Shown: positions 6,011 to 50,503, numbered from the stretch's first letter. The stretch: 64,000 nt of DNA from an uncultured Clostridia bacterium (GCA_934180065.1 CAKPRA010000004.1:4786-68785), one strand, 5' to 3'. The notes: generated by a model from the letters alone, not told the origin. Numbers and translations are program-made.

Positions 6011-6085
6011 AAAAGCCTCCGATTTTAATTAATTTATTAAAGTATATTAAAAATAAATAAAAAAATGAGTATTTACTGTTACTTT

Positions 6086-6814: not shown

Positions 6815-6953
6815 AAAATTTTAATCCTTTCTTTTATAGGTATTTTTTTTATTATTTTCAATTGAGAGAAAAAATATTCAAAATTTAAAAAATGAAATTG
6901 TAATAAAAACTTAAAGATGATATTATATAAATGCAAAAGATAAGGAGGAAAAA

Positions 6954-32680: not shown

Positions 32681-32772
32681 TTTTCGATAAATTATGACAA
32701 ACTTTGCAAAAAATTAGTGCTATATATTAGTTGATAAGTTTTTACTAAATAAATATTTAAGGAGGAAAAAAT

Positions 32773-33045
32773 ATGAAAGCTACAAAGATTATGATGAAAT
32801 CAAGTAATTCATCAAATTCATTATTAGAAATTGATTCAATATATATAGATGAATTATGTAGACTTATAAAGAAAGAAAAATTATATGATAAAATTGAGTA
32901 TGAAAATTGGAAAGTAAATGTCGATATAGGACCATATTATCCTAAAGTGGAAGGTGTTATAAGTAATGGAGAAAAGTATGTTAAATCAGTACCAAATGAT
33001 AGTAATGTAGATAATTTATTGTGTTTGCCTAAAGTGAAAATATAA
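32773..33045 (+). CDS. hypothetical small protein
   Basis: ORF with an RBS (aaggagg). No recognisable family. Confidence 0.4.
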   Translation: MKATKIMMKSSNSSNSLLEIDSIYIDELCRLIKKEKLYDKIEYENWKVNVDIGPYYPKVEGVISNGEKYVKSVPNDSNVDNLLCLPKVKI

Positions 33046-33100
33046 TTATGTAAGAATAAAAAGTAAAAACTTATCAAATAATTTAAAAGGATGGCATTTT

Positions 33101-33523
33101 ATGGAAGAAATAAGAGAACAGCTATTAAGAAAAATACCAAACAATGTTGATGGTAGTATATATATATCATATGAGGAAAGTGAAAAAAGCCAAAGAGAAA
33201 TTGAAAAATTAAAAAATGAAAAGTGGGTTGATTATATAGAAAGTTCGGGAAAAGGTAAGATTAAGGTATTTGTGTTAAATCAATATTTAAATAATGAAAA
33301 ATTCGAACAGGATAAAACAGAAGTGATAAAGAAAATTACAAAAAAAATTGAAAATGGATATAAAGGAGATAAAATTTTTAATTTAGATATTGGAGTTATG
33401 GGAAATTATAGAATTGAGATATGCAATTATTTGGTAAATGCAGATTATATTGCGTCATATGAATTAGTAGGAAATAGTAAAATTTCATGTAAAATTAATA
33501 GAAAAAGAGTTGAAACGAAGTAA
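33101..33523 (+). CDS. hypothetical protein
   Basis: ORF with an RBS. No recognisable family. Confidence 0.4.
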   Translation: MEEIREQLLRKIPNNVDGSIYISYEESEKSQREIEKLKNEKWVDYIESSGKGKIKVFVLNQYLNNEKFEQDKTEVIKKITKKIENGYKGDKIFNLDIGVMGNYRIEICNYLVNADYIASYELVGNSKISCKINRKRVETK

Positions 33524-33949
33524 TAAACATATGACTGAAATCTTAATCTAAATAAAAATGTAGAAAAATGAAAAAATAGGTAGTATTATCTTGAAAAAAC
33601 ACAGAAAAAATGATAAAATACTTTCAATAAGTTTTTATAATTTTCTGTGTTTAATATATAAAATAATTCACACCTAATTTATAACATTAAACATTTTTTC
33701 AATCAATAGTTTTTAATAATTGTAATACAAATGAAATACAAATGTAACATCCATGTAACAATCAAAATAACATAAAAGCTTATTAATCAAAAGATGAGAG
33801 GAGTGATAAGTTTTATATTTATTTTGAATTGTATTGAAAATGATATGTTTTCAATTGGATGTTGAATATGAATTTGATAAAAGAATTTACTGCATATTAC
33901 ATGCGGTTTATTCTTTTTTTATTTTATCATTTTGTAGGAGGAAATTTGT

Positions 33950-35371
33950 ATGAATATATATGGAAGAAAAATTATTATTGATAGAAAAATGGGGAAAATA
34001 TTATGTGAAAGTGAAATTGTAAAAAATAAAGAATACAATTGGTTATTAAATCAATTATTATATACGGGAAATACCAAGAAAAATGAAAAATATGAATTAA
34101 ATATTCAAGATATTCAAAATTTAGATTACTCACAAAAATCATTTTTAGACTCGTCTGCATATGACGAATTATATAAAACAGCTTGTAACGAATGGTTTAT
34201 TTATGATATAGTAGATAATGAACAAGAGTCAGAATGCGCTTTGTGTGGAGAAAAGAAAAATAAAAAAAAGTACTACATTAAAAATATAAAAAACGGAAAA
34301 ATATTAAATATTGGTAGTACATGTATTGAAAATTTTAGAGATATAAGAGACAAAAATGGAAAAACAATAAAGCAACTTGATAAAGAGTTTTTGACAAGAG
34401 CAAGAGAGAAAAAATTAAATAATTTGTATCCTGGAATTATTAAAAGAATAGATTGCTTTTATAAAAGAGTAGATGACCTACCAACAATTGTAAATGAAAA
34501 TTTGGAAAAGAAATATAACGAAAAATATTCTAAAATCAAAACTATTTACGAGAAATATAAAAAGAATAAGAAACTTGATACAAGATTAGCATATGAGATA
34601 AATGATTTATTAAATAAAGGCGATGAAATATTTGAATTAATACATAAGGATATTGATGAGAAAAGAAAAGATGAATGGTATATATCTAAAGAAATAAAAG
34701 ATTGGTGCTATAGAAATTATGATGATAATGTTGATACAATAAATTTTCTAAAAAGAGATGGTGTAATAAAGTTAAGGTCTGCTTGGAGAATAACAGAAAG
34801 CAATTTAGTAAATAAAGTAGTCGAGAAATTTAATAGAATTTTTATACAATATAATACAAAAATTGTTCAGTATAATAATCAAAATAAAAAAGTTATACTT
34901 AATATAGAAACTAGAAATAAATATACTAAACAGATAAATTTAGAGCACTCATATAAAGACTTGTTGATAAATTATGGAGAAGAAATATTTGAGAAAAAAT
35001 CTGTAATAAATGAAACATCTATCGAGCAAATAATAAAAGATTCAAACATAAATGATGTTATATCTTTAAATAGAGCATTAGAGTGTATAAAAAATCTAAC
35101 AAATAATGTAGAGATAAAAAAATGTGACTTTGATTATAATGAGTTAATTATTAAGCTTTACCAAGATAACAAACATTATTATAAAATTAATGCCAAAAGG
35201 TGTATTAATAACTTTAAAGAAAATATATATAATAATAAATTTATTGAAAATGATAAGATTACGACATATTTAAATAAAAATGCTGAAATTATAAGTATTA
35301 TAGATTATGATAAGAAAGGAATTTCTAATGAAAGTATTGAACATTTAATTAGAAAAGGTTATGTACAATAA
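33950..35371 (+). CDS. large hypothetical protein with a CxxC...C cluster, immediately upstream of the RM system
   Basis: 473 aa. RBS (aggagg). Contains CALCGEKK...GSTCIENF. Unknown family. Confidence 0.45.
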   Translation: MNIYGRKIIIDRKMGKILCESEIVKNKEYNWLLNQLLYTGNTKKNEKYELNIQDIQNLDYSQKSFLDSSAYDELYKTACNEWFIYDIVDNEQESECALCGEKKNKKKYYIKNIKNGKILNIGSTCIENFRDIRDKNGKTIKQLDKEFLTRAREKKLNNLYPGIIKRIDCFYKRVDDLPTIVNENLEKKYNEKYSKIKTIYEKYKKNKKLDTRLAYEINDLLNKGDEIFELIHKDIDEKRKDEWYISKEIKDWCYRNYDDNVDTINFLKRDGVIKLRSAWRITESNLVNKVVEKFNRIFIQYNTKIVQYNNQNKKVILNIETRNKYTKQINLEHSYKDLLINYGEEIFEKKSVINETSIEQIIKDSNINDVISLNRALECIKNLTNNVEIKKCDFDYNELIIKLYQDNKHYYKINAKRCINNFKENIYNNKFIENDKITTYLNKNAEIISIIDYDKKGISNESIEHLIRKGYVQ

Positions 35372-35803
35372 CACGAAATATATATTGTTAATCGAAATAA
35401 TGAGGTATATAGAAAAATTTGTGTAAAGTTTAAAAATACACCTTCTTATGATAATATATAAATGTCATAAGGAGGTTTTTTATATGGCAAAAAGAGAAAA
35501 AATAGTTGTTGAAAAAGGACAAAAAGATATACTTGGATTTTACATAGGAGATTCAGAAAGTGCAAAATTATTGGATGAGTGTACTGAATGAATTTATAAA
35601 ATATTTTTTGTATACCAAATTTTGCTAATTGACTTGATTTATTAACTTTAAAGAGCGATAAATACAATTAAAAAATAAAGATGGCACAATATAACGAAAC
35701 ATATAATAAATATCAATAAATATAATAAAACCACTTGATGATTATTTGATTTAAATATATAATAGATATGTAAATTATAAGAAAGCATAGAGGTGGAATT
35801 TTT

Positions 35804-35998
35804 ATGATAAATAGATTAGATGACAATTATATAGGTATAGAAGAAGCTGCTGAATATTTAGGAATAAAGGTAGTAACTTTGAGGACTTGGATAAAAATAA
35901 AACCTGAATTGCCAGCACATAAAATAGGAAAGCAGTGGAAGTTCAAAAAAACAGAGCTTGATGAATGGGTAAAAAGTGGAGAAAGCGCAATTGGGTAG
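35804..35998 (+). CDS. excisionase-family HTH DNA-binding protein
   Basis: 64 aa. IEEAAEYLGIKVVTLRTWIK is an Xis/MerR-like HTH. Confidence 0.6.
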   Translation: MINRLDDNYIGIEEAAEYLGIKVVTLRTWIKIKPELPAHKIGKQWKFKKTELDEWVKSGESAIG

Positions 35999-36038
35999 TT
36001 TTATGCAAAAATGTGCATAGTACAGAAAGGAGATAAAC

Positions 36039-39000
36039 ATGATTGATACTAAGGTTGCAAAATTATGGTCTTCCTTAAACAAAAAAAGCAAAGACATCGA
36101 AAATAAAATTGATACTTTGGTAAGAAAAAGAACAGGAAGTTATTATACGGATATAGAACTTACTGATGTTATGATGAATGAGTTAATAGAACAATTAAGA
36201 AATTCAAATTCATCAAAGAAACTTTGTGATTATAAATTTTTAGAACCTTGCATAGGTACTGGAAATTTCGTGTTTTCATATATTAAGACTATAGCTAAAA
36301 CAGGGCTTAGTAAAGAAGATGCTAAATGTATGTTGAATAATATTTATGTTGCAGATATAAATAAAGAGGCACTTAAAGGGTATAAAGAATCATTAAGTGA
36401 AATTGCATGGTTGTTTTGGAAGATAAAATTAACAAATGAATATTTTGAAAAACATATAGGAACAGGATTATTAATTGATGTAACAAAAGGTGAATTAAAT
36501 TATATTTCAATTAATGATGTATTTCAAGAAGATGTTATAAATGGAGGATTTGATATTGTTGCAACAAATCCACCATATAAAAATTTGAAAGCTGAACAAG
36601 GACAGTATAAAAGTGATGATGAATATGATAAAGATAAAGATAAATATTCAGTAATCTCAAAAATAGTAAAAAGAAATTTTAAATATTCAACTGATGGGGT
36701 ATTAAATTTATATAAATTGTTTGTTGAAGAAATAATTGATAAATATGCAAACAAAAACGCTTTTATTAGTTTATTGATTCCTGCATCAATAATGTCTGAT
36801 AAAACCTGTATGAAATTAAGAACACATATATTAGAGGATAATAAACTGATATCTGTAAAGGTAATTGAAGAAAACAACAAATATATAGATGCTCAACAAG
36901 CGTTATGTTCCGTTCTTATAAAAAAGGGAGAAAAAACTGATAATGTAAATATAACAAAAGATTACTGTAATGCACCAGGAGATATAGCAAAAGTAAAAAT
37001 TAAAGATATTTTAAATGTCAATACAGGAAATGCTATTATAGCGATTTCATCAAAAGAATATAATGTTTTGAATAAATTAAGAAAGTTCCCTGTAGTTAAA
37101 GATTTACCTTTTATTATAAATTTAAGGGGAGAGCTAGACTTAACTGCTAATAAGAAATATATAACAGAGAAGGATACTGGTTATTCATTGATTAGAGGAA
37201 GAAATATTGGTTATTATAATTTGATGAGTACTCCAAATGTTGAATTTGTTTCTAGTGATTTTATGAATATAACAAAGAAAAAATGTTACATTGAAAAAGA
37301 AAGAATCATATGTCAACAAATAGCAAATATGAACAAAGAACGACGAGTTGCATTTGCTTTAATTTCAAAAAATTACATATTAGGAAATTCATGTAATTTC
37401 ATTTCAGTAGAAGAAAATTCATATGGAATAGATATATATGCTATTTTGGGATTATTCAATACTAAAATTATAAATTGGTTATTCAAATTAACAAGTAGTA
37501 ATAATCATGTAAATAATTATGAAATAGACTGTTTTCCTGTTCCAGTGAAAGCTAAAGAATTAAAAGAAATATCAATTCTAACTCAGAAATATTTAAAAGA
37601 ACAAGATGAAAAAATTATTGAAGAAATAGAAAAATTAGCTAATATAGCATATGGTATAGAGAAAAACACTGAAGAGTATGCTGTAAATAAAAATGATGAT
37701 TATCTTAATGAATTTTTAACTGCAATTAGATATATTATACCTAAAATAACAAAAGAGAAAGCACAGAGCATTCTTGACGGTAAAGAAAAAATAGATTATT
37801 GTTTAGAGGGATTAAATAAATTTGAAAGAAACGTAGCAAAAGGAATAGCAGAAAAATATACGTTATTATTTCAAGGTAAATTACTAAATCACACTACATT
37901 TAAATTAAGTGACCTAGATCTCGAGATGATAAAAAATGTACCACAAGGGGGAAATTGGAAAGATATTCCGATGGAAACTGTCGAAAAATCTCAAAGATTA
38001 AAGCGTATAACTCAAACAGGAGGAAGAACTACATTATACGGAAGGATTGATTATGAAAAGCCAAGCTATACAATAACAACCTATTTTAACAGACCAGGTA
38101 ATGGGACATATGTTCATCCTGTTCATGAAAGGGTTTTATCTGTTAGAGAAGCAGCGAGATTTCAAGGATTTAAAGATGATTATTACTTTTATGGTAATAA
38201 AACACAATATTTAAAACAAATTGGAAATGCTGTGCCAACATTACTTGCTTATCAAATAGGCAGAGAAATAAAAGAAAAAACGGGTTGCTATAAATCAATT
38301 GATTTATTTTGTGGAGCTGGTGGAATGACTGCTGGTTTTAAAGCTGCGGGAATAAAATCTTTATTAAGTAATGATATTGAAGAAAGTGCTTGTACTACAT
38401 TAAAAATTAATAATCCAGAAATAAATGTTTTATGTGGAGATATTACAGGAAAAGAAACAAAGGATATTATTGAAAAAGCGGCACTTGCAGGAGAAGCAGA
38501 TATTATATGTGGTGGTCCACCATGTCAAGGTTTTTCTATGGCAGGTTTTAGATTAGAGAATGACCCTAGAAATCAGTTGTTTCGAGAGTTTGTTGATATA
38601 GTTAAAAGAGTAAGTCCAAAAGTTATTGTGTTTGAAAATGTAGAAGGATTATTAAGCTACCAAGGTGGAAAAACATATCGTGAAGTTCATACATTGTTTG
38701 GAGAACTTGGATATAATACAGAAGGTAGAACTTTAATTGCAAGTGAATATGCTGTACCACAAAAGCGAAAAAGGGTAATTATTATTTGCACTAGAAAAGA
38801 TATGCCTTTTTTTCCGGCTGATTTATTTCCAAAGGCTATAACTACTGAGGAAAAAAATCAAGTTACAGCGCGAGAAACAATATCAGATTTAGAAAATGTT
38901 TTATGCGATGAAAATGCAAGATATGTAGATGTTAATGAATCAGAGATTCTTGAATTTTTTAAGGGAGAAATTACATATGAAGAGTATATTAATTCAAAAT

Positions 39001-39071
39001 CTCATGAAGAGCAAAATCTAAAGATAGCAGCAGGACAATATGAACAAATTAGTTGCATGAATTTACTATAA
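36039..39071 (+). CDS. bifunctional DNA methyltransferase: an N-terminal N6-adenine MTase (NPPY) fused to a C-terminal, circularly permuted C5-cytosine MTase
   Basis: The N-terminal domain carries DIVATNPPY. The C-terminal half has RVLSVREAARFQGF...GNAVP (motifs IX/X) placed before IDLFCGAGG (I), GGPPCQGFS (IV), ENV (VI) and QKRKRVIII (VIII). Confidence 0.85.
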   Translation: MIDTKVAKLWSSLNKKSKDIENKIDTLVRKRTGSYYTDIELTDVMMNELIEQLRNSNSSKKLCDYKFLEPCIGTGNFVFSYIKTIAKTGLSKEDAKCMLNNIYVADINKEALKGYKESLSEIAWLFWKIKLTNEYFEKHIGTGLLIDVTKGELNYISINDVFQEDVINGGFDIVATNPPYKNLKAEQGQYKSDDEYDKDKDKYSVISKIVKRNFKYSTDGVLNLYKLFVEEIIDKYANKNAFISLLIPASIMSDKTCMKLRTHILEDNKLISVKVIEENNKYIDAQQALCSVLIKKGEKTDNVNITKDYCNAPGDIAKVKIKDILNVNTGNAIIAISSKEYNVLNKLRKFPVVKDLPFIINLRGELDLTANKKYITEKDTGYSLIRGRNIGYYNLMSTPNVEFVSSDFMNITKKKCYIEKERIICQQIANMNKERRVAFALISKNYILGNSCNFISVEENSYGIDIYAILGLFNTKIINWLFKLTSSNNHVNNYEIDCFPVPVKAKELKEISILTQKYLKEQDEKIIEEIEKLANIAYGIEKNTEEYAVNKNDDYLNEFLTAIRYIIPKITKEKAQSILDGKEKIDYCLEGLNKFERNVAKGIAEKYTLLFQGKLLNHTTFKLSDLDLEMIKNVPQGGNWKDIPMETVEKSQRLKRITQTGGRTTLYGRIDYEKPSYTITTYFNRPGNGTYVHPVHERVLSVREAARFQGFKDDYYFYGNKTQYLKQIGNAVPTLLAYQIGREIKEKTGCYKSIDLFCGAGGMTAGFKAAGIKSLLSNDIEESACTTLKINNPEINVLCGDITGKETKDIIEKAALAGEADIICGGPPCQGFSMAGFRLENDPRNQLFREFVDIVKRVSPKVIVFENVEGLLSYQGGKTYREVHTLFGELGYNTEGRTLIASEYAVPQKRKRVIIICTRKDMPFFPADLFPKAITTEEKNQVTARETISDLENVLCDENARYVDVNESEILEFFKGEITYEEYINSKSHEEQNLKIAAGQYEQISCMNLL

Positions 39072-39075
39072 TTTA

Positions 39076-39112
39076 AAAGAATGATTATCGATTTTTATGA
39101 TAATCATTCTTT
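39076..39112. terminator. bidirectional terminator between the convergent M and R genes
   Basis: aaaagaatgattatcgatttttatgataatcattctttt is a perfect hairpin. Confidence 0.7.
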
Positions 39113-39116
39113 TAAA

Positions 39117-40526
39117 TTATAGTATGTTTATTATTCTTTTTTCTATTTTTTCTATTAAACTAATTAATTTCTTTTTACAATAATCGGTTGATTTTCCTTG
39201 TTCAATATCAGTACATAGAGAATTAAGAATTTTTAATTCCTCAGGGTTTAAATAGTGTTTTCTGTTACGATTATCTTTTTCATTGTAATCATATACAGCT
39301 TCTATAGCAATTCGTTTATATCTTTCTGTTTCATTTTGATTTCTGCCGGTATAATGTCTATTAGTTTTACTAATAATATTACCTTTTTTATCAAAAGTAT
39401 AAGAATATTTAAAATATTCATAATTTGGTTCTAAAAATGCAGAAACAAGAAAATTTTCACCATTATTTGGGCAGGTTTCTAATATTGTTAGTAAAACATA
39501 CATAAAATTTGCCATATTTTGTTTTAATGCATCACGATATAGTGATGGTACTTTGTCTGGATTTGAAGAATAATTCTTTTTTATAAATTCCCAGATAAGT
39601 CTTGATTGCCAAGACATTGGATATATTCCTGTTCTTTTTTCTGTTTTTAATATATTTTCAATATCTATGATTTGTAAACGATCACGTTTCGAAGAATTAT
39701 CACTACTAGACATGGGCTGTAAATAATGTGAATCATGAACAAATCCAAGAGAAATAGGACCAATGTGGTCAGCAGATATACCGTCAAAAAAACTACTACC
39801 CATAAATTGATTAGCAGCATGAATATTTCCGTCACTCCAATATTCATATGCTCTTCTGTCTTTTGTATATGATTTTAGATTTATTTTTGAACGTCCTTTA
39901 TCTTGAGTAGCTCTGCAACAACGATTATATGTATGAAATCCATCAAAACGGTCTGGAAAATTTGACATTGCTCCTGGACCTAAACATTTTTTATTTCCTT
40001 TGCGACAAGCATATTCTAAATTTTCGATTATTTCATCCTTATTGGAAGTAGACGCATTTAATTTTAACTGTCCTTTGTTAATAAGAAATTCCGCAATTTC
40101 TATTTTTTTAATTCCTTGGTTTATTAATTCATCCCATATATCATTTATATTATCACAGCTAGAAAATTCATAATTGAATTTTTTGTTTAGTGATTTTAAA
40201 AAATTAGCATTTGGATAATGATAATATAAAGACATCTCTTTTCCGCAAATTTGACATACTTTCCATTTGGTTGGGTGTATTTCTAGCATAACATCAGCAT
40301 ACATTCCTGGATAATCTTTATCATCAGATATAAAATTTAATTCTTTAGCTTTAGAAATACACCAATTTTTGCGTTGTTTACCAATTTCTGACTGAGCTGT
40401 TGCAATCCAATTATAAGTTCCATCTGCCTTTTGTGTGATTGGTAATCCTTTGTAATTAGGATGATTTATAATCATTTCCATATATTTTTGAAATCTATGA
40501 TGCCATATTTTTTCTTCTATTGCCAT
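39117..40526 (-). CDS. putative restriction endonuclease (probably type IIS, HNH/Cys-rich)
   Basis: Convergent with the fused MTase, and immediately downstream of the C-protein gene, with translational coupling. Cys pairs CQIC and RCC are present. The likely start is MAIEEK, which has an RBS. Confidence 0.55.
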   Translation of the reverse strand: MAIEEKIWHHRFQKYMEMIINHPNYKGLPITQKADGTYNWIATAQSEIGKQRKNWCISKAKELNFISDDKDYPGMYADVMLEIHPTKWKVCQICGKEMSLYYHYPNANFLKSLNKKFNYEFSSCDNINDIWDELINQGIKKIEIAEFLINKGQLKLNASTSNKDEIIENLEYACRKGNKKCLGPGAMSNFPDRFDGFHTYNRCCRATQDKGRSKINLKSYTKDRRAYEYWSDGNIHAANQFMGSSFFDGISADHIGPISLGFVHDSHYLQPMSSSDNSSKRDRLQIIDIENILKTEKRTGIYPMSWQSRLIWEFIKKNYSSNPDKVPSLYRDALKQNMANFMYVLLTILETCPNNGENFLVSAFLEPNYEYFKYSYTFDKKGNIISKTNRHYTGRNQNETERYKRIAIEAVYDYNEKDNRNRKHYLNPEELKILNSLCTDIEQGKSTDYCKKKLISLIEKIEKRIINIL

Positions 40527-40527
40527 A

Positions 40528-40722
40528 TTATTCATCTCCTTCATTTTTTACAGTTTCTATTATATCTTTAAGAATACAATTTAGTGCTTCACATATTTTT
40601 AGAAGAACATCAGTTGTTACATTTGCACCTTTTCCAAGCTTTGCTATGGATGCAGGACTGATGTTTGCAATTTTTCCTAAATCTTGTTTATTTATTCCTT
40701 TATCAATTAATAATTTTTTCAT
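40528..40722 (-). CDS. controller (C) protein, HTH XRE family
   Basis: 64 aa. KQDLGKIANISPASIAKLGKG is an HTH. It sits just upstream of the REase gene on the same strand. Confidence 0.7.
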   Translation of the reverse strand: MKKLLIDKGINKQDLGKIANISPASIAKLGKGANVTTDVLLKICEALNCILKDIIETVKNEGDE

Positions 40723-41022
40723 AAGTTGAAAGATATAGTTGTTAAATTGATAGAAAAATTATATCAGAAATTTATAAAAAATCTATATTATGGCAAAAAA
40801 AATATGCAATCGTGAAAAAAATGCAAGTATTATTATATAAAATATTCTGAATTTAGACCAGGAAGATATGGAAAATATCATTGGAAAAACAATTACTATA
40901 GAGCAATATGATAATGGTGTTGATAAAGAAGATAGAATAGCAAAGATAATGCAAAAACTTGACATGAAATAATGCTTAGAATATAATTTCATCAAGATAT
41001 AAATAGTAAAGGAGTGGTTTTT

Positions 41023-41895
41023 GTGTTAGATTTGCATATGCATACTAGATATTCTGATGGATCTGACGAAGTTAGTATGGTTTTAGAAAAGGCAGAAAAG
41101 TTAAAATTAAAGTGTATTTCAATTACCGATCACAATACTTGTTTAGAGTATAATGAGCTTAAAAATGCAGAAACAAGAGCTTTATTTTCTGGGAAAATTA
41201 TACCAGGAGTAGAGCTAAATACCAAAGTTTTAGGTATTCCAATCGAAATACTCGGATATAATGTTGACACAGATGTGTTACAAAAATATATTGATAAAAC
41301 ATATATTAGTAATGAAGAAAGATGTAAACTAGAAGTTGAAAGATTATATAAAAAATGTTTAATTGAAGGTATATTATTACCGAATGATTTTGTTGAAAAA
41401 TATGATAGCTCTATATATGCATCTAAATATCTTCATTCATTAATAACAAAAGATGAAAAAAATAAAGAATTGATAGATGAAGAATCATGGAATAATAGTA
41501 ATATATTTTATAGAAGATATATGTCAAATCCTAGCAGCAAGTTTTTTGTCAATATGGATGATATATTACCAAGTTTTGAAGAAGCTTCTGAAATAGTAAA
41601 AAAATCAGGAGGTCTTGTTTTTATACCACATATATTCGAATATGGCGAGAATTCAATTAAAATACTAAATTACATTCTAGAAAATTATAAATTTGATGGA
41701 ATTGAATGTTATTATAGAAACTTTACACAAGAAAAAACAGATTTTCTTTTAGATATATGCCAAAAACATAACTTATATAAATCAGGAGGAAGCGATTATC
41801 ACGGAAAAAATAAACCAGGTGTTGAAATAGGCGTAGGTGAAGGAAATTTGAATGTGCCAGATGATATTATAGTTTGGGCAAAAAATTTTGTATAA
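41023..41895 (+). CDS. PHP-domain metal-dependent phosphoesterase
   Basis: LDLHMHTRYSDGS...SITDHN is the PHP motif. The likely start is a GTG, 9 nt after aaaggag. Confidence 0.7.
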   Translation: MLDLHMHTRYSDGSDEVSMVLEKAEKLKLKCISITDHNTCLEYNELKNAETRALFSGKIIPGVELNTKVLGIPIEILGYNVDTDVLQKYIDKTYISNEERCKLEVERLYKKCLIEGILLPNDFVEKYDSSIYASKYLHSLITKDEKNKELIDEESWNNSNIFYRRYMSNPSSKFFVNMDDILPSFEEASEIVKKSGGLVFIPHIFEYGENSIKILNYILENYKFDGIECYYRNFTQEKTDFLLDICQKHNLYKSGGSDYHGKNKPGVEIGVGEGNLNVPDDIIVWAKNFV

Positions 41896-41991
41896 TATTT
41901 AAAAAATATATTGACAAAACAATAATAAGAAAATAAAATAAAAGCATCATAGGTAGAAGAAAACCATACCCTTAATTAAGGAGGAATGTTT

Positions 41992-42696
41992 ATGAAAGTA
42001 TTTTTACCGGATATTGTTGAGAAAAATGGCTCATTAAATTTGAGCTCATTGCCAATCGGACGTAACACAAGGTTTATTAGTGTTACAGGACAAGACGGCA
42101 GTGGAAAGACTAATCTTCGTGATGGTCTGGCAAAATATTTTTCAGAGCGGGAAAATGTTGTTATAACAGCTAAATCTCCATGTGATGCATATTTGGTAAA
42201 GTTGCTTAATAATGCAATTAGCCAAAACGGTTATGAAGATTGGTACACAGAGCAAATGTTGTTCAGCTTTGCAGATGGTTTGTTATCTAATTACATGAGA
42301 CAGTTAAACGGACATTGTGACTATTTCATTTGTCAGAGAGGTCCAATTGACCAGTATGCACATGGTGTAACTAGAAGCAGAAAGTCATATCAGACAATTT
42401 ACCAGTTTCAGAAGCCCGAAAGACTTGCAAAGTTTGATGTTTACATTCACATGAATTGTGAAGCAAAAGTTGCATGGGAAAGAGTTGCAAAAGATGAAGG
42501 TAAAGACAGGTATGAATACCCAGAGTACTTTGAACGTCAGGTAAAGAACACGGAGAAATTGTATCAAGATATTATGTCAGGGAAACATAAAGAGCTTGAC
42601 TTTTTAAGCGCAGCAAAACATATATATATTGATACAACAAATTTAACAATCGAGCAGACATTTGAAAAAGCCTTGACAGAATTGAAAATGACTTAA
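41992..42696 (+). CDS. P-loop nucleotide/nucleoside kinase-like protein (thymidylate-kinase fold); GC clearly higher than neighbours
   Basis: Walker A motif SVTGQDGSGKT. GC is visibly higher, at about 38% against about 25% in the flanks. Confidence 0.5.
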   Translation: MKVFLPDIVEKNGSLNLSSLPIGRNTRFISVTGQDGSGKTNLRDGLAKYFSERENVVITAKSPCDAYLVKLLNNAISQNGYEDWYTEQMLFSFADGLLSNYMRQLNGHCDYFICQRGPIDQYAHGVTRSRKSYQTIYQFQKPERLAKFDVYIHMNCEAKVAWERVAKDEGKDRYEYPEYFERQVKNTEKLYQDIMSGKHKELDFLSAAKHIYIDTTNLTIEQTFEKALTELKMT

Positions 42697-43056
42697 AAAA
42701 AATTGAGCTTCCATAAAATCAAAATTATGGTAGCTCTTTTTATATGTTAAATAAAGTAATAAGATTATAACACATAAAGAGAATAAATAATGTTCAGGAT
42801 AGTTTGATTGAATTTAGTGAAAACATATATTAAATGTTTAACTTTAACATGAGATGTATTTAAATCCGCTATATTCTACTTTTCCATTTTTAACTTGTAA
42901 AACTTATGTTTAAAATAAAAACAATGGTCAAAGCCATGCCGGTTGCTGAGATAAAAAGGTTGAAATAAATTCTGTTTTATAAATCATATCATTGATTTTG
43001 TAATCTTTTTAAGATATAATATCCGAATAAAATATAAGATACAGAAAGGGAATGAG

Positions 43057-44214
43057 ATGAATTATAAAGATATAATATTACCAAACTATGACTATTGTAT
43101 ACATAATACAATAACATCAATTTTAAAAAATTATGATGTAAAAACAAATAATAAATCATTAGAAACATTAGATGAAGTATTTAAGGCAAAAGATTACAAA
43201 AATGTTATTTTCTTAATTTTGGATGGTTTAGGAGAGCATATTTTAGAAAAAGTTTCTCCAGATGGATTCTTTTCTAAAAATAAGATAGATTGTGTTACCT
43301 CTGTATGCCCATCAACAACCACTGCAGCTCTTCCAGTATATTATTCAGGTAAGGTACCATATGAAACTGGATGGATAGGGTGGTCTCAATATTTTAAAGA
43401 ATATGGAAGATCATTAGATATGTTTACACATAAAGAATCTTACCTTGGAAACTATTTAAAAAATCCCATCAAAAATATGTTTGAAGAGGAGCTTAACTAT
43501 GAATCAATTTTTTATCAAATTGAAAAAGCTTCTCCAAATGTAAGAGCAATTGAGGTTCAGCCACAATATGCTGAGCAAATGGCGAAAAGAAGTGTGAGAG
43601 CAAATAATTTAGATGAGATTGAAACTGCAATTTATGATATATGCTCTATGCCGGGAAAGAATTTTATAGTCGCATATTCAGATAATCCAGATGGATTATT
43701 GCATAAATACGGAACAGATTCGCAAGAAGCCAAAGAATTCATAAAAGATGCCGAAAAAAGAATACAGAAAATTAGAGCAAATTTAGATGAAGAAACATTA
43801 ATAATTATTTCAGCAGATCATGGACATAAAAATATAGAAAAAGCATATTCAATAATTAATTATCCAGAAATAATGGAATGCCTTATAATTCCACCAACTC
43901 TAGAATCTAGAGCATTGAGTTTTTGGGTAAAAGATGAAATGAAAGATGAATTTGTAAAAAGATTTAATAAAGAATTTGAAAAAGAGTTTTGGTTAATGAG
44001 TAAAGATGAGTTCCTAAATAAATATAAAATGCTTGGAACTGGAGAAAAGCATAAAAAGATAGATGATTTCATTGGGAATTTTGTGGCTTTATCTGTTGGA
44101 AGTAGTATTATTAGAATTGAAACATTTTTAGCAGAAGGAAAACCTGTAAAAAAATCTACACATTGTGGTCTAACAAAAGACGAAATGGAAGTTCCGGTAA
44201 TAGTTTTAAAATAA
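43057..44214 (+). CDS. alkaline-phosphatase-superfamily metalloenzyme (phosphodiesterase / phosphomutase-like)
   Basis: FLILDGLG, the CPSTTT nucleophile region, and SADHGH metal-binding motifs. Confidence 0.55.
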   Translation: MNYKDIILPNYDYCIHNTITSILKNYDVKTNNKSLETLDEVFKAKDYKNVIFLILDGLGEHILEKVSPDGFFSKNKIDCVTSVCPSTTTAALPVYYSGKVPYETGWIGWSQYFKEYGRSLDMFTHKESYLGNYLKNPIKNMFEEELNYESIFYQIEKASPNVRAIEVQPQYAEQMAKRSVRANNLDEIETAIYDICSMPGKNFIVAYSDNPDGLLHKYGTDSQEAKEFIKDAEKRIQKIRANLDEETLIIISADHGHKNIEKAYSIINYPEIMECLIIPPTLESRALSFWVKDEMKDEFVKRFNKEFEKEFWLMSKDEFLNKYKMLGTGEKHKKIDDFIGNFVALSVGSSIIRIETFLAEGKPVKKSTHCGLTKDEMEVPVIVLK

Positions 44215-44576
44215 AAAATTTATTTAGTAATTACCTGAAAGGAGAGTATTAACTTCTATATGTAATAAACTAAATATAAATTTATATGATGCATTAAAGA
44301 AAAAAGAAGAAAAAAATATTAAGAGAAAATGGACAATAAATAAAAAAGATGATAGTGAAATATCATAAAGTGTATTTAATCATTGTGACATTTAAAATAA
44401 TTTAAATATATATGTCGAAAAGTGTCGAAAAAAGCAATACGATTATGATTGCGGATTTCGACATTTTTTGATATTGTTTAGGGAAAAGATATAAATCATA
44501 AGTTTATTTTATAAAAATTTATTTTAAAAAGATTTGTATATTTTAAATGTTAGTGCATAAATAAAGGGGGATACAT

Positions 44577-45539
44577 ATGAAAAATAAAATAAAAAGATTA
44601 TCTAAAATAATTGCTCTATTAGGTATACTATTAGCTTTTCCAACAACAATATTGGCTCATTCTGGAAAAACTGATAGCTCTGGTGGTCATAAAGACAAAA
44701 ATAATGTGAGTGGACTTGGAAGTTATCATTATCACTGTGGTGGGTATCCAGCTCATTTACACGATGGAGGAGTTTGTCCTTATAGTGGCAGTGCAAAATC
44801 TTCAACTACAACAAAATCAACAACTACAAACAATAGTAAAAAGTCAACAACAAATAATAGCAAAAGTTCAACAACTAAAGCTGAATCATCAACTGAAACT
44901 AAAAACGTTGAAGTTGAAAAAGTAACATTAAAAGCTTCAAAAAGTAAAATTGAAATTAATGAAGAGCTAACTATTGTTGCTACAGTTACTCCAATATCTG
45001 CAAATAATAAATCTTTAACTTGGAAAAGCTCTGATAATTCAATTGCTACAGTTTCAAGCTCCGGTGTAGTAAAAGCAATAAAAGATGGAACAGTTTCAAT
45101 AACTGCTACTTCTTCAAATGGAAAAAGCGATACTTTAAATATTACAGTGAATAAGCCTAAAATTGATGTAACAGAGCTTAATTTAGATGAAAGCGATATT
45201 ACATTAGAAACAGGCAATGAGAATAGAATAATGGCGAATGTTCTTCCATACAATGCTACTGATAAAACAATAAAATGGACATCTTCTAATAATGAAGTAG
45301 CAATAGTTGAAAATGGAAAAGTAAAAGCTTTAAATGCTGGAGAAGTAACTATTACAGCAGAAACATCTAGTGGAATAATAAAAACATGTCATGTAAAAGT
45401 GGCGGAGCCAGCTAAGTCATCAAAGGTAGAAAACACTTCAAATGGTGGGACTTCAGCAGCTTTTGGAGGAGCAATAGTAGGTGCTGGTATAGTTGGTGCA
45501 GGTGTTTTTGGTATGAAAAAACTTAAATGTAAAAAATGA
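44577..45539 (+). CDS. surface protein with a YHYH domain and two Big_2 (Ig-like) domains, plus a C-terminal membrane anchor
   Basis: Signal peptide. GSYHYHCGGYPAHLHDGGVCPY. Two repeats of about 80 aa match the Big_2 pattern. C-terminal hydrophobic segment followed by KKLKCKK. Confidence 0.65.
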   Translation: MKNKIKRLSKIIALLGILLAFPTTILAHSGKTDSSGGHKDKNNVSGLGSYHYHCGGYPAHLHDGGVCPYSGSAKSSTTTKSTTTNNSKKSTTNNSKSSTTKAESSTETKNVEVEKVTLKASKSKIEINEELTIVATVTPISANNKSLTWKSSDNSIATVSSSGVVKAIKDGTVSITATSSNGKSDTLNITVNKPKIDVTELNLDESDITLETGNENRIMANVLPYNATDKTIKWTSSNNEVAIVENGKVKALNAGEVTITAETSSGIIKTCHVKVAEPAKSSKVENTSNGGTSAAFGGAIVGAGIVGAGVFGMKKLKCKK

Positions 45540-45649
45540 TTGATAACGGTTTAATATTGTCAATTATCATAAATAAAATAAATTACTTAAATTTTTATCT
45601 CGTTCCCATTGACATATATCGAAAAAGTGATAGAATATTACCATAAAAT

Positions 45650-45896
45650 GCGATGAAAAAGAATGAATATAACTTCAATTTAAAGAGAGCTAATGGTTGG
45701 TGGAAATTGGTAATATGGATTATATGTGGAACTTTTGAGCATTGTAAAAAAGAGAGGATAGAATATTTCAACAAGAACTAAATATTAACAAATGAAAAAT
45801 TTAATATTTAAGCTAGTTGGAATTAGTACATCAATTAGGGTGGAACCGCGGAAAAATATTTCGTCCCTAGCTTTATAGGCTAGTGGGCGTTTTTTG
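45650..45896 (+). promoter_or_regulatory. T-box riboswitch leader of glyQS
   Basis: The T-box sequence aattagggtggaaccgcgg is followed by the terminator ccctagctttataggctagtgggcgtttttt. Confidence 0.7.
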
Positions 45897-45968
45897 TATT
45901 TAAAATAAAACAAAATCTACTAAAATACAACAATAACCACAGCCGAAAAAATAAAGGAGGTTTTTTAT

Positions 45969-47351
45969 ATGGTAGATTCAATGGAAAAAATTGTAAGTTT
46001 ATGCAAAAACAGAGGATTTATATATCCTGGTTCAGAAATTTATGGAGGTCTAGCTAATACTTGGGATTACGGTCCTTTAGGTTCAGAGCTTAAAAACAAC
46101 GTAAAAAAAGCATGGCAAAAGAAATTTATACAAGAATGTAAATACAATGTAGGATTAGATGCTGCAATATTTATGAATCCTGAAACTTGGGTTGCAACAG
46201 GACATGTTGGAGGTTTTAGTGATCCATTAATAGATTGTAAAGAATGTAAAACAAGACATAGAGCAGATAAATTAATAGAAGAATGGGCAACACAAAATGG
46301 TCAAGATTTAGTTGCTGATGGTTGGTCTGATGAAGAAATGATTAAATTTATGGATGATCACAATATAAATTGTCCGAACTGTGGAAAACACAATTTTACA
46401 GGAATTCGTAAATTCAATTTAATGTTCAAAACATTCCAAGGTGTAACAGAAGATTCAACATCACAAATATATTTAAGACCAGAAACAGCACAAGGTATAT
46501 TTGTAAATTTCAAAAATGTAATGAGAACTACAAGAAGAAAATTACCAACAGGTATAGCTCAAATTGGTAAGGCTTTCAGAAATGAAATAACACCAGGTAA
46601 CTTTACATTTAGAACTCGTGAGTTTGAACAAATGGAATTAGAATTTTTCTGTAAACCAGGTTCAGATGAAGAATGGTTCAAATATTGGGAAGAATTCTGC
46701 AAAAACTGGTTATTATCACTTGGAATGGACGAGAACAACATTCGTCTAAGACAACATAGTAAAGAGGAGCTTGTTTTCTATAGCAAAGGAACAACAGACA
46801 TAGAATTCAAATTCCCATTTGGTTGGGGAGAGCTATGGGGAATAGCTGATAGAACAAATTATGATTTATTAAGACATATGGAACATTCAAAACAAGATTT
46901 ATCATACTTAGATCCAGAAACAAATGAAAAATATATACCATATGTAATAGAGCCATCACTAGGATGCGATAGAGCTACACTTGCATTTTTATGTAACAGC
47001 TATGAAGAAGAAGAAATTGCAGAAGGTGACACAAGAACAGTATTACATTTACATCCAGCATTAGCACCATACAAAGTTGCTGTACTTCCACTATCTAAAA
47101 AATTAAGTGAAAAAGCTATAGAAGTATATGAAAAATTATCAAAAGACTTCATGTGTGACTATGACGAAGCGGGAAGTATCGGAAAAAGATATAGAAGAGA
47201 AGACGAAATAGGAACACCATATTGTGTAACAATAGACTTTGATACATTAGAAGACAACCAAGTTACTGTAAGAGATAGAGATACAATGGAACAAGTTAGA
47301 ATTTCTATTGATGAATTAAATAATTGGATAAAAAATAAAATAGAATTTTAA
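45969..47351 (+). CDS. glyQS: glycine--tRNA ligase (homodimeric class II type)
   Basis: [21 protein letters not shown], and [10 protein letters not shown] (motif 2). 460 aa. Confidence 0.9.
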
Positions 47352-47444
47352 TTTCAGTGAATATATATTTACTACGATATTAATATAGCCCAAAAGATAA
47401 AAAAGTACATTATATTCAGACTAATTTTAGGAGGAAATGTAGAA

Positions 47445-48308
47445 ATGAAGAGAAAATTTATACTAATAATAAGTGTAATAATAATTCTAATTATATCTGT
47501 ATGTGTTTTATTATTAAATAAAAGCAAAGAAGTTGCAAAAAATAGTGATGAAATATATATAAACGTTGAAAATGAGTTTATGGCTGAAAATACTAATAAT
47601 GTTACAAATAATATAATATCAGAAAAAAATGAAGAAAAAACGATTAGTACTGCAAGTAATGAGCAAAAAGTAGATAAAAATGTTAATCAAAATAACGTTG
47701 ATGTAAATAAAAAAGTAGAAAAAACAGAAAATAAAAATCAAACAAGCTCAAACAGCAATATTAGTAAAGAAAATAATGCACCAACTGGTAAAACTACATA
47801 TTATATCAAGGTAAATTATGGAGCTAATGCAGTTACTATATACAAAAAAGATGAAAACGGTTATTACACAGTTCCAGTAAAGGCAATGATTTGTTCATGT
47901 GGAACTGCAACACCGAAAAGTGGTGTTTATAAAACATCTAAGGGATATGAATGGGGAACTTTAGAAGGAGGAACATATGGTAGGTATTCTACTAGAATAA
48001 AGGGTGGCATTTTATTTCACTCTGTTCCATATGTGTCAGAAAGTGAGGATTCATTAGAATATTGGGAATATGATAAATTAGGAACGACAGCATCTTTAGG
48101 TTGTGTTAGACTTGCAGTGGCTGATTCAAAATGGATATTTGATAATTGTGAAGTTGGAACTCAAGTCGAGTTTTATTCAGATACAAATCCAGGACCACTA
48201 GGAAAACCAACTGCCCAAAAAATATCTGATAATGAGAAATGTAGAAATTGGGATCCAACAGATACTTCTCCAAATAGCCCATGGGTCAATGGGGACGGTT
48301 CTCTTTGA
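47445..48308 (+). CDS. L,D-transpeptidase (YkuD domain). The last 8 codons are encoded by a REP
   Basis: HSVPY....SLGCVRL catalytic motif. The tail WVNGDGSL comes from gggtcaatggggacggttctctttga. Confidence 0.75.
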   Translation: MKRKFILIISVIIILIISVCVLLLNKSKEVAKNSDEIYINVENEFMAENTNNVTNNIISEKNEEKTISTASNEQKVDKNVNQNNVDVNKKVEKTENKNQTSSNSNISKENNAPTGKTTYYIKVNYGANAVTIYKKDENGYYTVPVKAMICSCGTATPKSGVYKTSKGYEWGTLEGGTYGRYSTRIKGGILFHSVPYVSESEDSLEYWEYDKLGTTASLGCVRLAVADSKWIFDNCEVGTQVEFYSDTNPGPLGKPTAQKISDNEKCRNWDPTDTSPNSPWVNGDGSL

Positions 48309-48311
48309 CAA
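48285..48311 (+). repeat. REP-like element
   Basis: gtcaatggggacggttctctttgacaa. Confidence 0.85.
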
Positions 48312-48574
48312 CCACAAAAAAATACAGAATTTTTCTGTATTTTTTTTGCATGAAACGGAACATAAACAGTTGACACACTGAAAGTTATTTTGGAATTATG
48401 GAAAGTAAGTAAAAGGAAAAAAATAAGGAAGAAACGGGAAAGTGTTGAAGCAATTGACAATATTGAATTGGGAAAAATTACATAATTGTACTTGACATAA
48501 TTATTGATAATATGCTATACTTTATTCAGATGTTTCGAAAGAAACATACTTTGTACTAAGGAGGTCGAAAGACC

Positions 48575-48769
48575 ATGGGAATTAACATTGACACAACCGC
48601 AGCTCGCAAAGCTGCACAGGATGCTCACGCAAAAGCTGAAAAAGCAAATCAGACTGCACAGTCTGCTATCGAAGAAGCTAATGCTATTGCAGAGCGCATT
48701 AAAGCAATTCCTCATACTAATAGTATGGAAGAGCTTGACGTAGCCCTTGCAAAGGCTATCCGTGGTTAA
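48575..48769 (+). CDS. small helical protein (64 aa) with a strong RBS and unusually high GC
   Basis: aaggaggtcgaaagaccATG. The ORF is about 45% GC in a genome of about 27%. The repeated leader motif lies upstream. Confidence 0.55.
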   Translation: MGINIDTTAARKAAQDAHAKAEKANQTAQSAIEEANAIAERIKAIPHTNSMEELDVALAKAIRG

Positions 48770-48785
48770 AATTCCCCAAAGAAAA

Positions 48786-48822
48786 AGCCGATGAAGATTT
48801 TATTTCTTTCATCGGCTTTTGT
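48786..48822 (+). terminator. rho-independent terminator
   Basis: aaagccgatgaagattttatttctttcatcggctttt. Confidence 0.7.
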
Positions 48823-48853
48823 CGTTAACTTAAATGGTAAACCAGGATTATGG

Positions 48854-48880
48854 GTCAATGGGGACGGTTCTCTTTGACAA
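48854..48880 (+). repeat. REP-like element
   Basis: gtcaatggggacggttctctttgacaa. Identical to the copy at 48285. Confidence 0.85.
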
Positions 48881-49199
48881 CAATAAAAAAACTACAGAAT
48901 TTTCCTGTATTTTTTTGTTGCATGGAACAAAACATAAACAGTTGACGCACTGAAGATTATTTCCTTATTATGGAAAGTAAATAAAAAGAAAAGATGAAGG
49001 AAGAAACAGATACGGTTCTTGCAAGTGTTTGCAAGGAACCTTAAATCACTTAATAAATAAAAGAGTTGAAGCAATTGACTTTGAGCGATTAGAAGGAAAG
49101 TGCATAAAATTACTTGACATATACACAGTAAATGGTGATAGAATTATGATATATCAAACTGAAATGGTGCAATAAAATTTTATGAGGAGAATATAAATC

Positions 49200-50279
49200 A
49201 TGGAAAGTTTAAAGGAATATAGACCTAGTATAATTAATAAACTAAAATTATTTCTAAGCAGAATTGAACAAAGAAAAACAATTGAAAAAAATTTAGATAA
49301 ATTAGATATCAGTTTATTTTCTTCCAATAATATTGATTATATAATACAAAATAAAGAAAAATTTAAAAGTACAAGTGGTATGCCAGATCCACAAAAAGAA
49401 ATTATGACTATTGAAGATAAACTTGGAATAGTAATGGACTTTTTCAATGATTTAAATTCTAGTTTAGGGAAAAAAGTTAAAGATACATATTTAAAATATA
49501 AAACGCAAATTTATTTTGATGAGTGCAGTGATAAAAATAAAGAAATTGGTGATGGTTTCACTAGCGGACATAATAGAAGTACATCCATTATGTGTGGCGA
49601 TGGTATTGAAAGACCAAATCTTATAGCAAGAATTTGTACCAATAAAAATAATGCACTAGATATATATAATATAGCTCACGAATTCACACATATATTGCTA
49701 AACGAAAATACTAAAGAAAAAAACATTAGTGCTGAAAACCAAGAAATTGCAACTAGATTTACAGAAATCTTGTTGGGCGAATATATGGAAAAAAGAAAAA
49801 TTATCACAACAGAAGACAAAGAAAATCACAACATATGTATATCAGGCGAAATAGATAAAGCATATCAGCTCAATGAATATAGAATTTTAAGAAACCTAAT
49901 TAAAAACAATGGAAATAAATTTGATAAGAAATTAGAAAAAACATGTATTTCTAAATATTGCAAAGGAAATAAAAACTGGTATTACCAAATATTATCAAAC
50001 ATAGCATATAGATTAGAAAGAACCGGCAAAGTAGACGGTTTTCAAAATTACTTAAGATTTGTTAATTCAGCAGCAGAATGTGATAAATTAAAACAAGCAT
50101 ATATTGAAAATCCCGATTTAATAAAAAAAGCTTTTTCTCAATGTTTAATGAGTCAGCATAGTATTACGTACAATGATGTAGTGAAAAAGAGGTCAATGGG
50201 GACGGTTCTTTTTGACACAAAAAACATTGACGTTTTACAGCAAGTAAAGAAAAAAGATACATACGAAATTACTCATTAA
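49200..50279 (+). CDS. hypothetical protein with an HExxH motif (putative zinc metallopeptidase). An in-frame REP insertion lies near the C-terminus
   Basis: HEFTH motif. A REP at 50192-50219 is translated as RSMGTVLFDT. Confidence 0.45.
   Translation: MESLKEYRPSIINKLKLFLSRIEQRKTIEKNLDKLDISLFSSNNIDYIIQNKEKFKSTSGMPDPQKEIMTIEDKLGIVMDFFNDLNSSLGKKVKDTYLKYKTQIYFDECSDKNKEIGDGFTSGHNRSTSIMCGDGIERPNLIARICTNKNNALDIYNIAHEFTHILLNENTKEKNISAENQEIATRFTEILLGEYMEKRKIITTEDKENHNICISGEIDKAYQLNEYRILRNLIKNNGNKFDKKLEKTCISKYCKGNKNWYYQILSNIAYRLERTGKVDGFQNYLRFVNSAAECDKLKQAYIENPDLIKKAFSQCLMSQHSITYNDVVKKRSMGTVLFDTKNIDVLQQVKKKDTYEITH
50192..50219 (+). repeat. REP-like element inside a coding sequence
   Basis: gtcaatggggacggttctttttgacaca. 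Confidence 0.85.
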
Positions 50280-50503
50280 ATTGAATTAATTTTATAAAAG
50301 ATAAAAAATAATATTCTAAGTTATGTTAACTGCAAAGATACAAGAGTTAAGGGAAAATTACTGGAATTTTTATTACAGAATTGCATTGTTTTATATAATA
50401 TAATAAGTTCAGTAGATTTTTTTCTAATTTGAAAATCTTTCTACATCATTCGATATCCACCCACTTTGATAAATCCTCTTAGTAGAGGTAGAAAGGAAAA
50501 CAG

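Follow-up and report, generated by a model that had tools for sequence, protein, structure and literature searches.

A compact type IIS restriction-modification cassette with a fused, circularly permuted methyltransferase and a predicted GTCTC specificity in an uncultured Clostridia bacterium

The closest described relatives of the locus presented here are type IIS restriction-modification (R-M) systems of the Alw26I/Eco31I/Esp3I family. Eco31I has been placed in the HNH superfamily on mutagenesis evidence (PMC2441816), its HNH motif having been reported from sequence analysis and mutagenesis. On the modification side, natural circularly permuted C5-cytosine methyltransferases (MTases), in which motifs IX and X come before motifs I to VIII, include M.Alw26I, M2.Eco31I, M.Esp3I, M2.BsaI, M.BsmAI, M.BsmBI, and M2.BcoDI (PMC5944983), and the bases modified in the Eco31I site are GAG(m6A)CC and GGT(m5C)TC (PMC4659465). 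We analyzed a stretch of 64,000 nucleotides from an uncultured Clostridia bacterium (GCA_934180065.1, CAKPRA010000004.1:4786-68785), referred to here as the window, and found that positions 35593 to 40822 very probably represent, judging by sequence, a compact and intact R-M cassette of this family, most probably directed at GTCTC. It is an ordinary member of a well-characterized type IIS family, of which the HNH site, the fused MTase, and the permutation had already been described; the locus adds a GTCTC prediction, the borders of the cassette, the permuted C5 topology, and a "C protein" of a different helix-turn-helix (HTH) family that sits on a deletion-fusion.

The cassette contains four open reading frames (ORFs). 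A gene of the HTH_17 type (35804-35998, + strand, 64 aa) is followed by the MTase gene, a single ORF of 1010 aa (36039-39071, + strand). Convergent to it lies the gene of a 469-aa restriction endonuclease (REase) of the Alw26I/Eco31I/Esp3I family (39117-40526, - strand), next to an HTH_26 gene in the position of a controller (40528-40722, - strand), whose 64-aa product is N-terminally truncated and chimeric in comparison with its homologues. An earlier reading made by a model from the sequence alone (hereafter the sequence-only reading) had described these four ORFs between 35804 and 40722, and our ORF scan reproduced its layout exactly; the motifs it quoted could be located as well, NPPY (residue 177) in the MTase and CQIC (91) and RCC (202) in the REase, together with DLFCGAGG (755) and PPCQGFS (827) in the MTase. 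Its assignment of the locus to the type IIS systems of the Eco31I/Esp3I/Alw26I kind is borne out by the two large proteins, both above curated cutoffs, by the permuted C5 domain, and by the HNH alignment. These are not chance ORFs, the hidden Markov model (HMM) matches of the MTase and the REase having E values of 1e-152 and 6e-144, respectively.

The MTase combines two MTase domains in one ORF, as the sequence-only reading had proposed with its single-chain m6A and m5C enzyme. Residues 30-554 (36126-37700, + strand) form an N6-adenine MTase domain with motif I GTGNF at residue 73 and motif IV NPPY; they score 508.9 bits, over a cutoff of 353.5, with TIGR02987 (met_A_Alw26), the NCBIfam model of the Alw26I/Eco31I/Esp3I family type II restriction adenine-specific DNA-methyltransferases, and include a TaqI_C-type target-recognition domain at residues 384-501. 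The protein also matches TIGR00675 (dcm, 194 bits), the PADLOC model MTase_II PDLC03237 (6e-225 over residues 25-957), and the Pfam families Eco57I, TaqI_C, and DNA_methylase. The C5 domain is circularly permuted, with motifs IX-X ahead of I-VIII, because GNAVP (729) precedes DLFCGAGG (755) and the database matches are split in the permuted order. The first part, residues 615-752 (37881-38294, + strand), carries the variable or target-recognition region, motif IX REAARFQGF at 703, and motif X GNAVP, and in a PDB search it matches the C-terminal end (motifs IX-X) of DNMT1 catalytic domains. The second part, residues 751-975 (38289-38963, + strand), carries motif I DLFCGAGG, motif IV PPCQGFS with the catalytic Cys, motif VI ENV at 866, and motif VIII QKRKR at 908; it corresponds to profile positions 1-216 of the 324 in Pfam DNA_methylase, and in PDB it is the N-terminal part of DNMT1, M.HaeIII, and M.HhaI, with motifs I-VIII, to which residues 751-930 align. 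Residues 617-983 are collinear, at 42% identity, with the 396-aa M2 of an Escherichia coli Eco31I-type locus. For comparison we collected 41 related loci from different genomes, designated by L-numbers; the MTase is fused in most of them and split near residue 550 in L004, L026, L030, and L038.

The REase scores 480.5 bits over model positions 1-425 of TIGR02986, the NCBIfam model of the Alw26I/Eco31I/Esp3I family type II restriction endonucleases (cutoff, 443.85), and matches Pfam RE_Alw26IDE (PF09665) at 1.7e-83, with 282 bits against a cutoff of 23.1, and PADLOC REase_II at 1e-154. Its ORF is open up to position 40544, which would give a protein of 475 aa if the first ATG were used, whereas a start at the ATG of position 40526 gives 469 aa. 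The 469-aa form is the real one, since the methionine of MA.EEK is the start in 28 of 28 aligned homologues and is preceded, about 10 nt upstream and inside the end of the HTH_26 gene, by a GGAG Shine-Dalgarno sequence. The residues unchanged in all of 94 homologues, which share 47-86% identity with the REase of the window, include C91, C94, H198, C203, C204, D253, H254, N277, K280, and R281. The Cys-rich, HNH-type nuclease of the sequence-only reading thus keeps both Cys pairs and the DH...N...K signature, and a nuclease motif was found.

This putative HNH (beta-beta-alpha-metal) motif covers residues 251-283, SADHIGPISLGFVHDSHYLQPMSSSDNSSKRDR (39678-39776, - strand), and is supported by invariance, by an AlphaFold model, and by alignment with the Eco31I-type enzyme. 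The segment SADHIGPISLGF...DNSSKRDR fits the HNH pattern DH-...-N-..-K, and the motif aligns with ADHIGPISLGF...CKSCNSAKNNR of the E. coli Eco31I-type REase. The model (mean predicted local distance difference test [pLDDT], 89.8) shows strands at residues 251-254 and 269-272 and a helix at 274-279, that is, a beta-beta-alpha arrangement; with 29 close homologues as input the catalytic region had stayed below a pLDDT of 50, which the use of 94 more diverse sequences fixed. The HNH assignment, resting on motif, model, and literature, can therefore be regarded as well supported.

While the sequence-only reading had left the specificity as unknown, the avoidance of sites in the surrounding DNA now predicts GTCTC. 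A maximal-order Markov model predicts 24.2 copies of GTCTC/GAGAC for the window, and an order-2 model 35.3, but only 7 are present (ratio to the former, 0.29; Poisson P of ~4e-5); the word ranks third of 512 pentamers by z-score and is the rarest of the 30 words of the same composition. Across the 41 related loci, GTCTC/GAGAC has 118 occurrences against 387 expected (ratio, 0.31), and none of the other pentamers among the 512 is as depleted, the next word standing at 0.66. There are no GTCTC sites inside the cassette, and within 32760-45600 as a whole they number 3 against 6.7 expected, a milder deficit than in the rest of the window (4 against 28.6), which also fits a GTCTC specificity. Other words are also scarce in the window: GCTCC/GGAGC is its most under-represented pentamer by z-score (44 versus 75.4, z = -5.0), and GGTTA/TAACC is low too (42 versus 67.9), deficits that might reflect other restriction systems or codon and ribosome-binding-site effects.

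As the family includes both 5-bp and 6-bp specificities, we considered a site of 6 bp, either GGTCTC as in Eco31I/BsaI, CGTCTC as in Esp3I/BsmBI, or another extension of GTCTC. The fused MTase, common to M.Esp3I, M.BsmBI, M.Alw26I, and M.BsmAI, fits either length, and the individual hexamer counts in the window are small. However, a hexamer-specific enzyme could remove only about one-quarter of the GTCTC sites, and the window has lost ~70-80% of them. Moreover, in the window and its relatives, AGTCTC, CGTCTC, GGTCTC, and TGTCTC, as well as all four GTCTCN words, are equally depleted, with ratios of 0.18-0.33. As a positive control we used 70 kb of E. coli EC958 (L042 and L043), an ST131 chromosome that carries the Eco31I-identical EcoMI and whose M1/M2.EcoMI are 100% identical to the Eco31I MTases acting on GGTCTC (PMC4659465). 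There, GGTCTC was found twice against 19.0 expected, whereas AGTCTC (12 versus 12.5), CGTCTC (18 versus 17.2), and TGTCTC (19 versus 15.1) occur at expectation. Because EC958 loses only GGTCTC, the avoidance test separates hexamer from pentamer specificity and, given the flank-independent loss of GTCTC in this clade, assigns to it the plain 5-bp site, most probably of the Alw26I/BsmAI type. In addition, the system of a Helicobacter pylori homologue (L038, 61% identical) is given as GTCTC by homology (PMC10423294). We consider a 6-bp site very unlikely.

By analogy with Eco31I, modification is expected as GAG(m6A)C and GT(m5C)TC. The N-terminal adenine MTase, of the gamma class, would mark the bottom strand, GAG(m6A)C, and the C-terminal permuted C5 MTase the top strand, GT(m5C)TC, so that one methyl group would be placed on each strand of the asymmetric site and a single enzyme of 1010 aa would protect the host. 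The REase would bind unmethylated GTCTC and use its single HNH active site to cut just outside it, presumably 1 nt and 5 nt downstream if it behaves like Alw26I/BsmAI. The pair is flanked by the genes of two small candidate regulators, HTH_17 upstream of the MTase and HTH_26 abutting the REase, and a 3.8-kb deletion has fused the truncated HTH_26 gene to the promoter of a lost upstream operon.

The borders of the cassette were set by comparison with L001, the closest of the related loci, from the metagenome-assembled genome of an uncultured Clostridia bacterium. The two share 93.9% DNA identity over 35593-40716 (5124 bp), while the following 106 bp of the window (40717-40822) map 3.8 kb away in L001, and nothing else is shared between them. 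Since sharing is confined to these two segments, the transferable or mobile unit is the 5.2-kb cassette 35593-40822. Its left end, where the homology with L001 starts at 35593, includes the region 5' of the HTH_17 gene (35593-35803, + strand), in which a promoter-like site TTGATG-17-TATAAT (35735-35763, + strand) was recognized as a consensus match only. Its right end (40723-40822, - strand) holds the promoter and leader that now serve the HTH_26 and REase genes and is 84% identical to L001 3923-4031. The neighbors of the cassette in L001, an Eco57I/PglX-like MTase of 1159 aa, a sigma-factor-like gene, and a fragment of a recombinase, suggest, together with the lack of GTCTC depletion in this locus, a recent arrival in a defense or mobile island.

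The rearrangement at the right end affects the HTH_26 gene. Full-length homologues (L001, L002, L005, L011, and L033) are 67-72 aa long, start with M.ISYNKLWK after AGGAG(G), and sit 16-47 nt after another ORF; the gene in the window is without the first 8 or so codons and without a ribosome-binding site. Compared with L001, 3.8 kb are missing up to codon 9 of the HTH gene, containing a 273-aa ORF and a 917-aa RecD2/TraA-like superfamily 1 (SF1) helicase. The sequence upstream of codon 3 in the window is homologous to L001 3923-4031, located ~115 nt upstream of the operon of the 273-aa ORF and the 917-aa helicase, situated ahead of the HTH gene in L001. The HTH gene of the window is thus fused in frame to the promoter and leader of the helicase operon, and its ATG at 40722 is the ATG of CAACTTATG in the leader, and an extended -10 element, TGATATAAT, is found at 40766-40758, ~36 nt upstream of this ATG. 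From its sequence, translation of HTH_26 in the window copy is doubtful. A perfect 8-nt inverted repeat, TATCAATT / AATTGATA (40701-40708 and 40745-40752), brackets the HTH_26 start codon, and its arms could pair in the mRNA; the arm in the leader is not conserved in L001, which has TATCAG there, and the repeat is probably due to chance in AT-rich DNA.

This gene had been taken for a C protein in the sequence-only reading, of which only the position stood, as it adjoins the REase gene and is co-oriented with it; neither kinship in sequence with the C proteins nor a C-box could be found. The product is an Xre-type protein (Pfam HTH_26, 4e-16) with VanU (trans_reg_VanU) as its best NCBIfam match, at 52.6 bits and below the cutoff of 150. 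Its best PDB match is 3tyr, a VanU protein named there only "Transcriptional regulator" (4e-11 over residues 3-58). Among characterized C proteins, C.BclI reached no better than E = 0.13 in the PDB search, and BLASTP against the classical C protein of L008 gave E = 4.7, whereas the L008 protein itself matches C.BclI, C.AhdI, and C.Esp1396I at 1.8e-13 to 1.7e-10. Classical C proteins lie upstream of the REase in L008/L009 (7765-7986) and L038 (7725-7937) and, by sequence pattern, also in L032 (7776-7991) and L030 (6898-7122), while the HTH_26 type takes the controller slot in the window, L001, L002, L005, L011, L024, and L033. From these sequences, the REase clade has at least two unrelated HTH families in the controller slot. 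Other small Xre-like HTH genes are present in L012 and L035.

A controller role of HTH_26 is plausible from its position. If it were a genuine C protein, it would time REase expression through an operator in 40723-40822. In accordance with this idea, it is a small, co-oriented Xre-type HTH protein, the stop codon of its gene is 1 nt before the REase ATG, its homologues stand upstream of the REase, or of a glycosylase and the REase, in the six relatives listed above for the HTH_26 type, whatever gene precedes them, and other members of the REase clade have classical C proteins at the same place. Nevertheless, apart from the E values given above and the missing ribosome-binding site, a search for a C-box or operator in 40700-41020 yielded nothing but low-complexity repeats rich in AT, the regions upstream of the HTH_26 homologues showed neither a conserved inverted repeat nor any other shared motif, and a mismatch-tolerant search recovered the conserved promoter core only in L001. 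Such a role for HTH_26 is possible but falls somewhat short of being probable. More tentatively, and in our opinion rather improbably, VanU-like HTH_26 proteins may constitute a new class of R-M regulators in one sub-lineage of GTCTC systems, which here would have been rewired by the deletion, together with the REase gene, onto the promoter of the lost helicase operon, so that the REase would be expressed with no properly translated controller.

The same deletion raises the question of whether the cassette is a decaying or REase-silent remnant, in which the MTase works and the REase is unexpressed or inactive. The loss of the first 8 or so codons and of the AGGAGG ribosome-binding site of HTH_26, along with the fusion to a foreign leader, would agree with it, and so would the copies that are frameshifted or fragmented in L038 (H. 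pylori), L037, L040/L041, and L045 (E. coli). However, both large ORFs are full length and keep every family-invariant residue, the REase has its own GGAG ribosome-binding site, and the extended -10 promoter is still placed ahead of the HTH_26 ATG. Furthermore, the same arrangement was found in a metagenome contig from an independent sample (L044), which is 99.75% identical and collinear with the window over 32760-50518, and the chromosome outside 32760-45600 has only 4 GTCTC sites where 28.6 are expected. A remnant is thus unlikely.

Several results weigh against an intact, GTCTC-specific HNH system and should be considered together. With the isolated motif segment, HMMER searches up to E = 10 returned only the own model of the REase family and no Pfam HNH family. 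Neither a PDB sequence search nor a profile search with 29 homologues, both to E = 10, found a solved relative of the REase, and Foldseek with the REase model against PDB gave a best E value of 1.9, leaving the overall fold without a solved relative. The comparison in sequence with characterized enzymes relies on one E. coli Eco31I-type locus (L045), in which REase and M1 are fragmented. L001, a 17.4-kb locus, shows no GTCTC depletion (7 versus 7.2 expected), and the depletion elsewhere shows that the host lineage has experienced GTCTC restriction, whose source could be an isospecific system instead of this copy. Lastly, the missing HTH_26 ribosome-binding site casts doubt on a classical C-dependent regulation of the REase.

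The HTH_17 protein at the other end of the cassette matches Pfam HTH_17 (6e-16) and scores 52.9 bits with TIGR01764, over a cutoff of 28.8; PADLOC gave weak matches to mad1 and to the N-terminal part of MTase_II. The sequence-only reading had described it as excisionase-like, which is right for the domain, given the TIGR01764 score, and was not sustained for an excisionase of an integrated element. We rejected that role because no recombinase adjoins the gene in the window and the gene travels with the MTase, 12 of the 41 collected loci having a homologue adjacent to their MTase gene. HTH_17 is a candidate MTase-linked regulator, which we only infer from this association in sequence. In six of these 12 loci, a 154-aa ORF (MRTMLLSFKADVY...) lies between HTH_17 and the MTase (L002 12503-12967, - strand; L005, L008, L012, L016, and L027), with fragments in L004, L006, and L011; it is absent from the window and L001 and had no match in Pfam or NCBIfam.

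Homologues of the REase are numerous, 1462 at E <= 1e-5 and 2019 when a 46%-identical query was used. Most come from gut Clostridia metagenomes, and others, at 48-50% identity, from Enterococcus faecalis and Lactococcus plasmids. Among the related loci, the REase is paired with the MTase in 37 of 41, and in all of these but L010 and L015 the two genes are convergent. Many relatives carry, directly upstream of the REase, an AlkA/Mag-type 3-methyladenine DNA glycosylase (HhH-GPD; PDB 2h56, 1e-34), as in L002 (7342-7989), L011, L016, L017, L020, L024, and L027; L030 has an OGG_N plus HhH-GPD protein (7119-7964), and one 683-aa database protein (P0185) is a fusion of HhH-GPD with RE_Alw26IDE. The window has no such gene. 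A possible function of the glycosylase is the repair of alkylation by-products made by the MTase. Among the degraded copies, the REase is frameshifted in L038 (8001-9384; H. pylori Nic47), and L045 (E. coli STO_Bone7) has its REase and M1 genes in fragments (5878-7615 and 8811-10232). It appears to be common in this family that the nuclease decays while the C5 MTase is kept, assembly errors being the alternative explanation.

The surroundings of the cassette had been described as an island from 32.7 to 45.6 kb. The left breakpoint was supported, since L044 diverges from the window to the left of 32760, while the right boundary at 45.6 kb was not, since L044 remains collinear up to 50518. At the breakpoint (L044 position 17777), L044 has an esterase gene and the window has the UDP-glucose dehydrogenase end of a polysaccharide locus; this divergence indicates that the polysaccharide locus is replaced at the strain level. 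No tRNA genes were found between 28 and 52 kb, and a compositional island was discarded, as the G+C fraction of 0.23-0.32 across 35-41 kb does not depart from the average of 0.27 in the window. Between the breakpoint and the cassette (32773-35592) lie the gene of a DUF3892 protein (32773-33045) and two ORFs without a family match in Pfam, NCBIfam, or PADLOC, one of 140 aa and one of 473 aa that is rich in lysine and has a CxxC motif. A 35-aa ORF, called in L044, lies immediately to the left of the cassette border. All of these are common to the window and L044 and not found in L001.

Just past the right end of the cassette, three co-oriented genes (41014-44214) encode a PHP-domain phosphoesterase, weakly similar to RNase RNM, a thymidylate-kinase-like P-loop protein with weak PADLOC matches to VakA, mad3, and mad8, and a protein of the type I phosphodiesterase/alkaline phosphatase family. 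An exact-protein look-up of the PHP gene gave no match, probably due to a differing start-codon call. Two of the seven GTCTC sites of the window (42297 and 43383) fall in this stretch.

The locus thus provides one more GTCTC-type IIS enzyme with a fused MTase, from a low-G+C gut anaerobe, and predicts GAG(m6A)C and GT(m5C)TC as methylation motifs of its genome. The cassette would represent a transformation barrier in the source organism, to be bypassed by removal of GTCTC sites or by pre-methylation of the DNA. In addition, the comparison of pentamer and hexamer avoidance, with its E. coli Eco31I control, shows that a short piece of host DNA can be enough to tell the specificities of this family apart.

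Compared with known regulators, HTH_26 is like C.BclI, C.AhdI, and C.Esp1396I in being the product of a small Xre-fold HTH gene upstream of the REase on the same strand, but it is not detectably related to them beyond the generic fold, has no detectable C-box, and differs in its chimeric N terminus and in having no ribosome-binding site. VanU regulators provide the best NCBIfam match but below the 150-bit equivalog cutoff, and the genomic context in the window is unrelated to glycopeptide resistance.

Eco31I, EcoMI, and BsaI (GGTCTC, cut 1/5) resemble the system described here in several aspects. An alignment of the window REase with its E. coli Eco31I-type counterpart extends over 337 residues at 36% identity and takes in the HNH motif. 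The E. coli M2 is permuted, and it is 42% identical to, and collinear with, the C5 part of the window MTase; the R and M genes are convergent in both systems. However, Eco31I has two separate MTases, M1 and M2 (PMC4659465), which are fused in the window. Two features of the Eco31I-type REase, a CxxC within the HNH helix and ~19 additional residues inserted ahead of DH, are absent from the window protein, and avoidance in an Eco31I host is hexamer-specific, while in the window it extends to the whole pentamer. Esp3I and BsmBI (CGTCTC, cut 1/5) belong to the same curated family and share the fused, permuted MTase (PMC5944983). Nonetheless, their specificity is unlikely in the window, since CGTCTC is no more depleted than the other NGTCTC words.

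By the curated HMMs, Alw26I, BsmAI, and BcoDI (GTCTC, cut 1/5) belong to the same REase and m6A-MTase families as the proteins of the window. M.Alw26I was reportedly described as single-chain by Bitinaite et al. in 2002. To our knowledge, flanking HTH_17 and HTH_26 genes have not been described for these enzymes, and the host of the window system differs from theirs in being a gut Clostridia-type organism of 27% G+C. Like the window enzyme, M.Alw26I and M.BsmAI join an m6A domain and a circularly permuted m5C domain in a single chain (PMC5944983 for the permutation). The 5-bp GTCTC site predicted for the window system from site avoidance matches that of Alw26I, BsmAI, and BcoDI.

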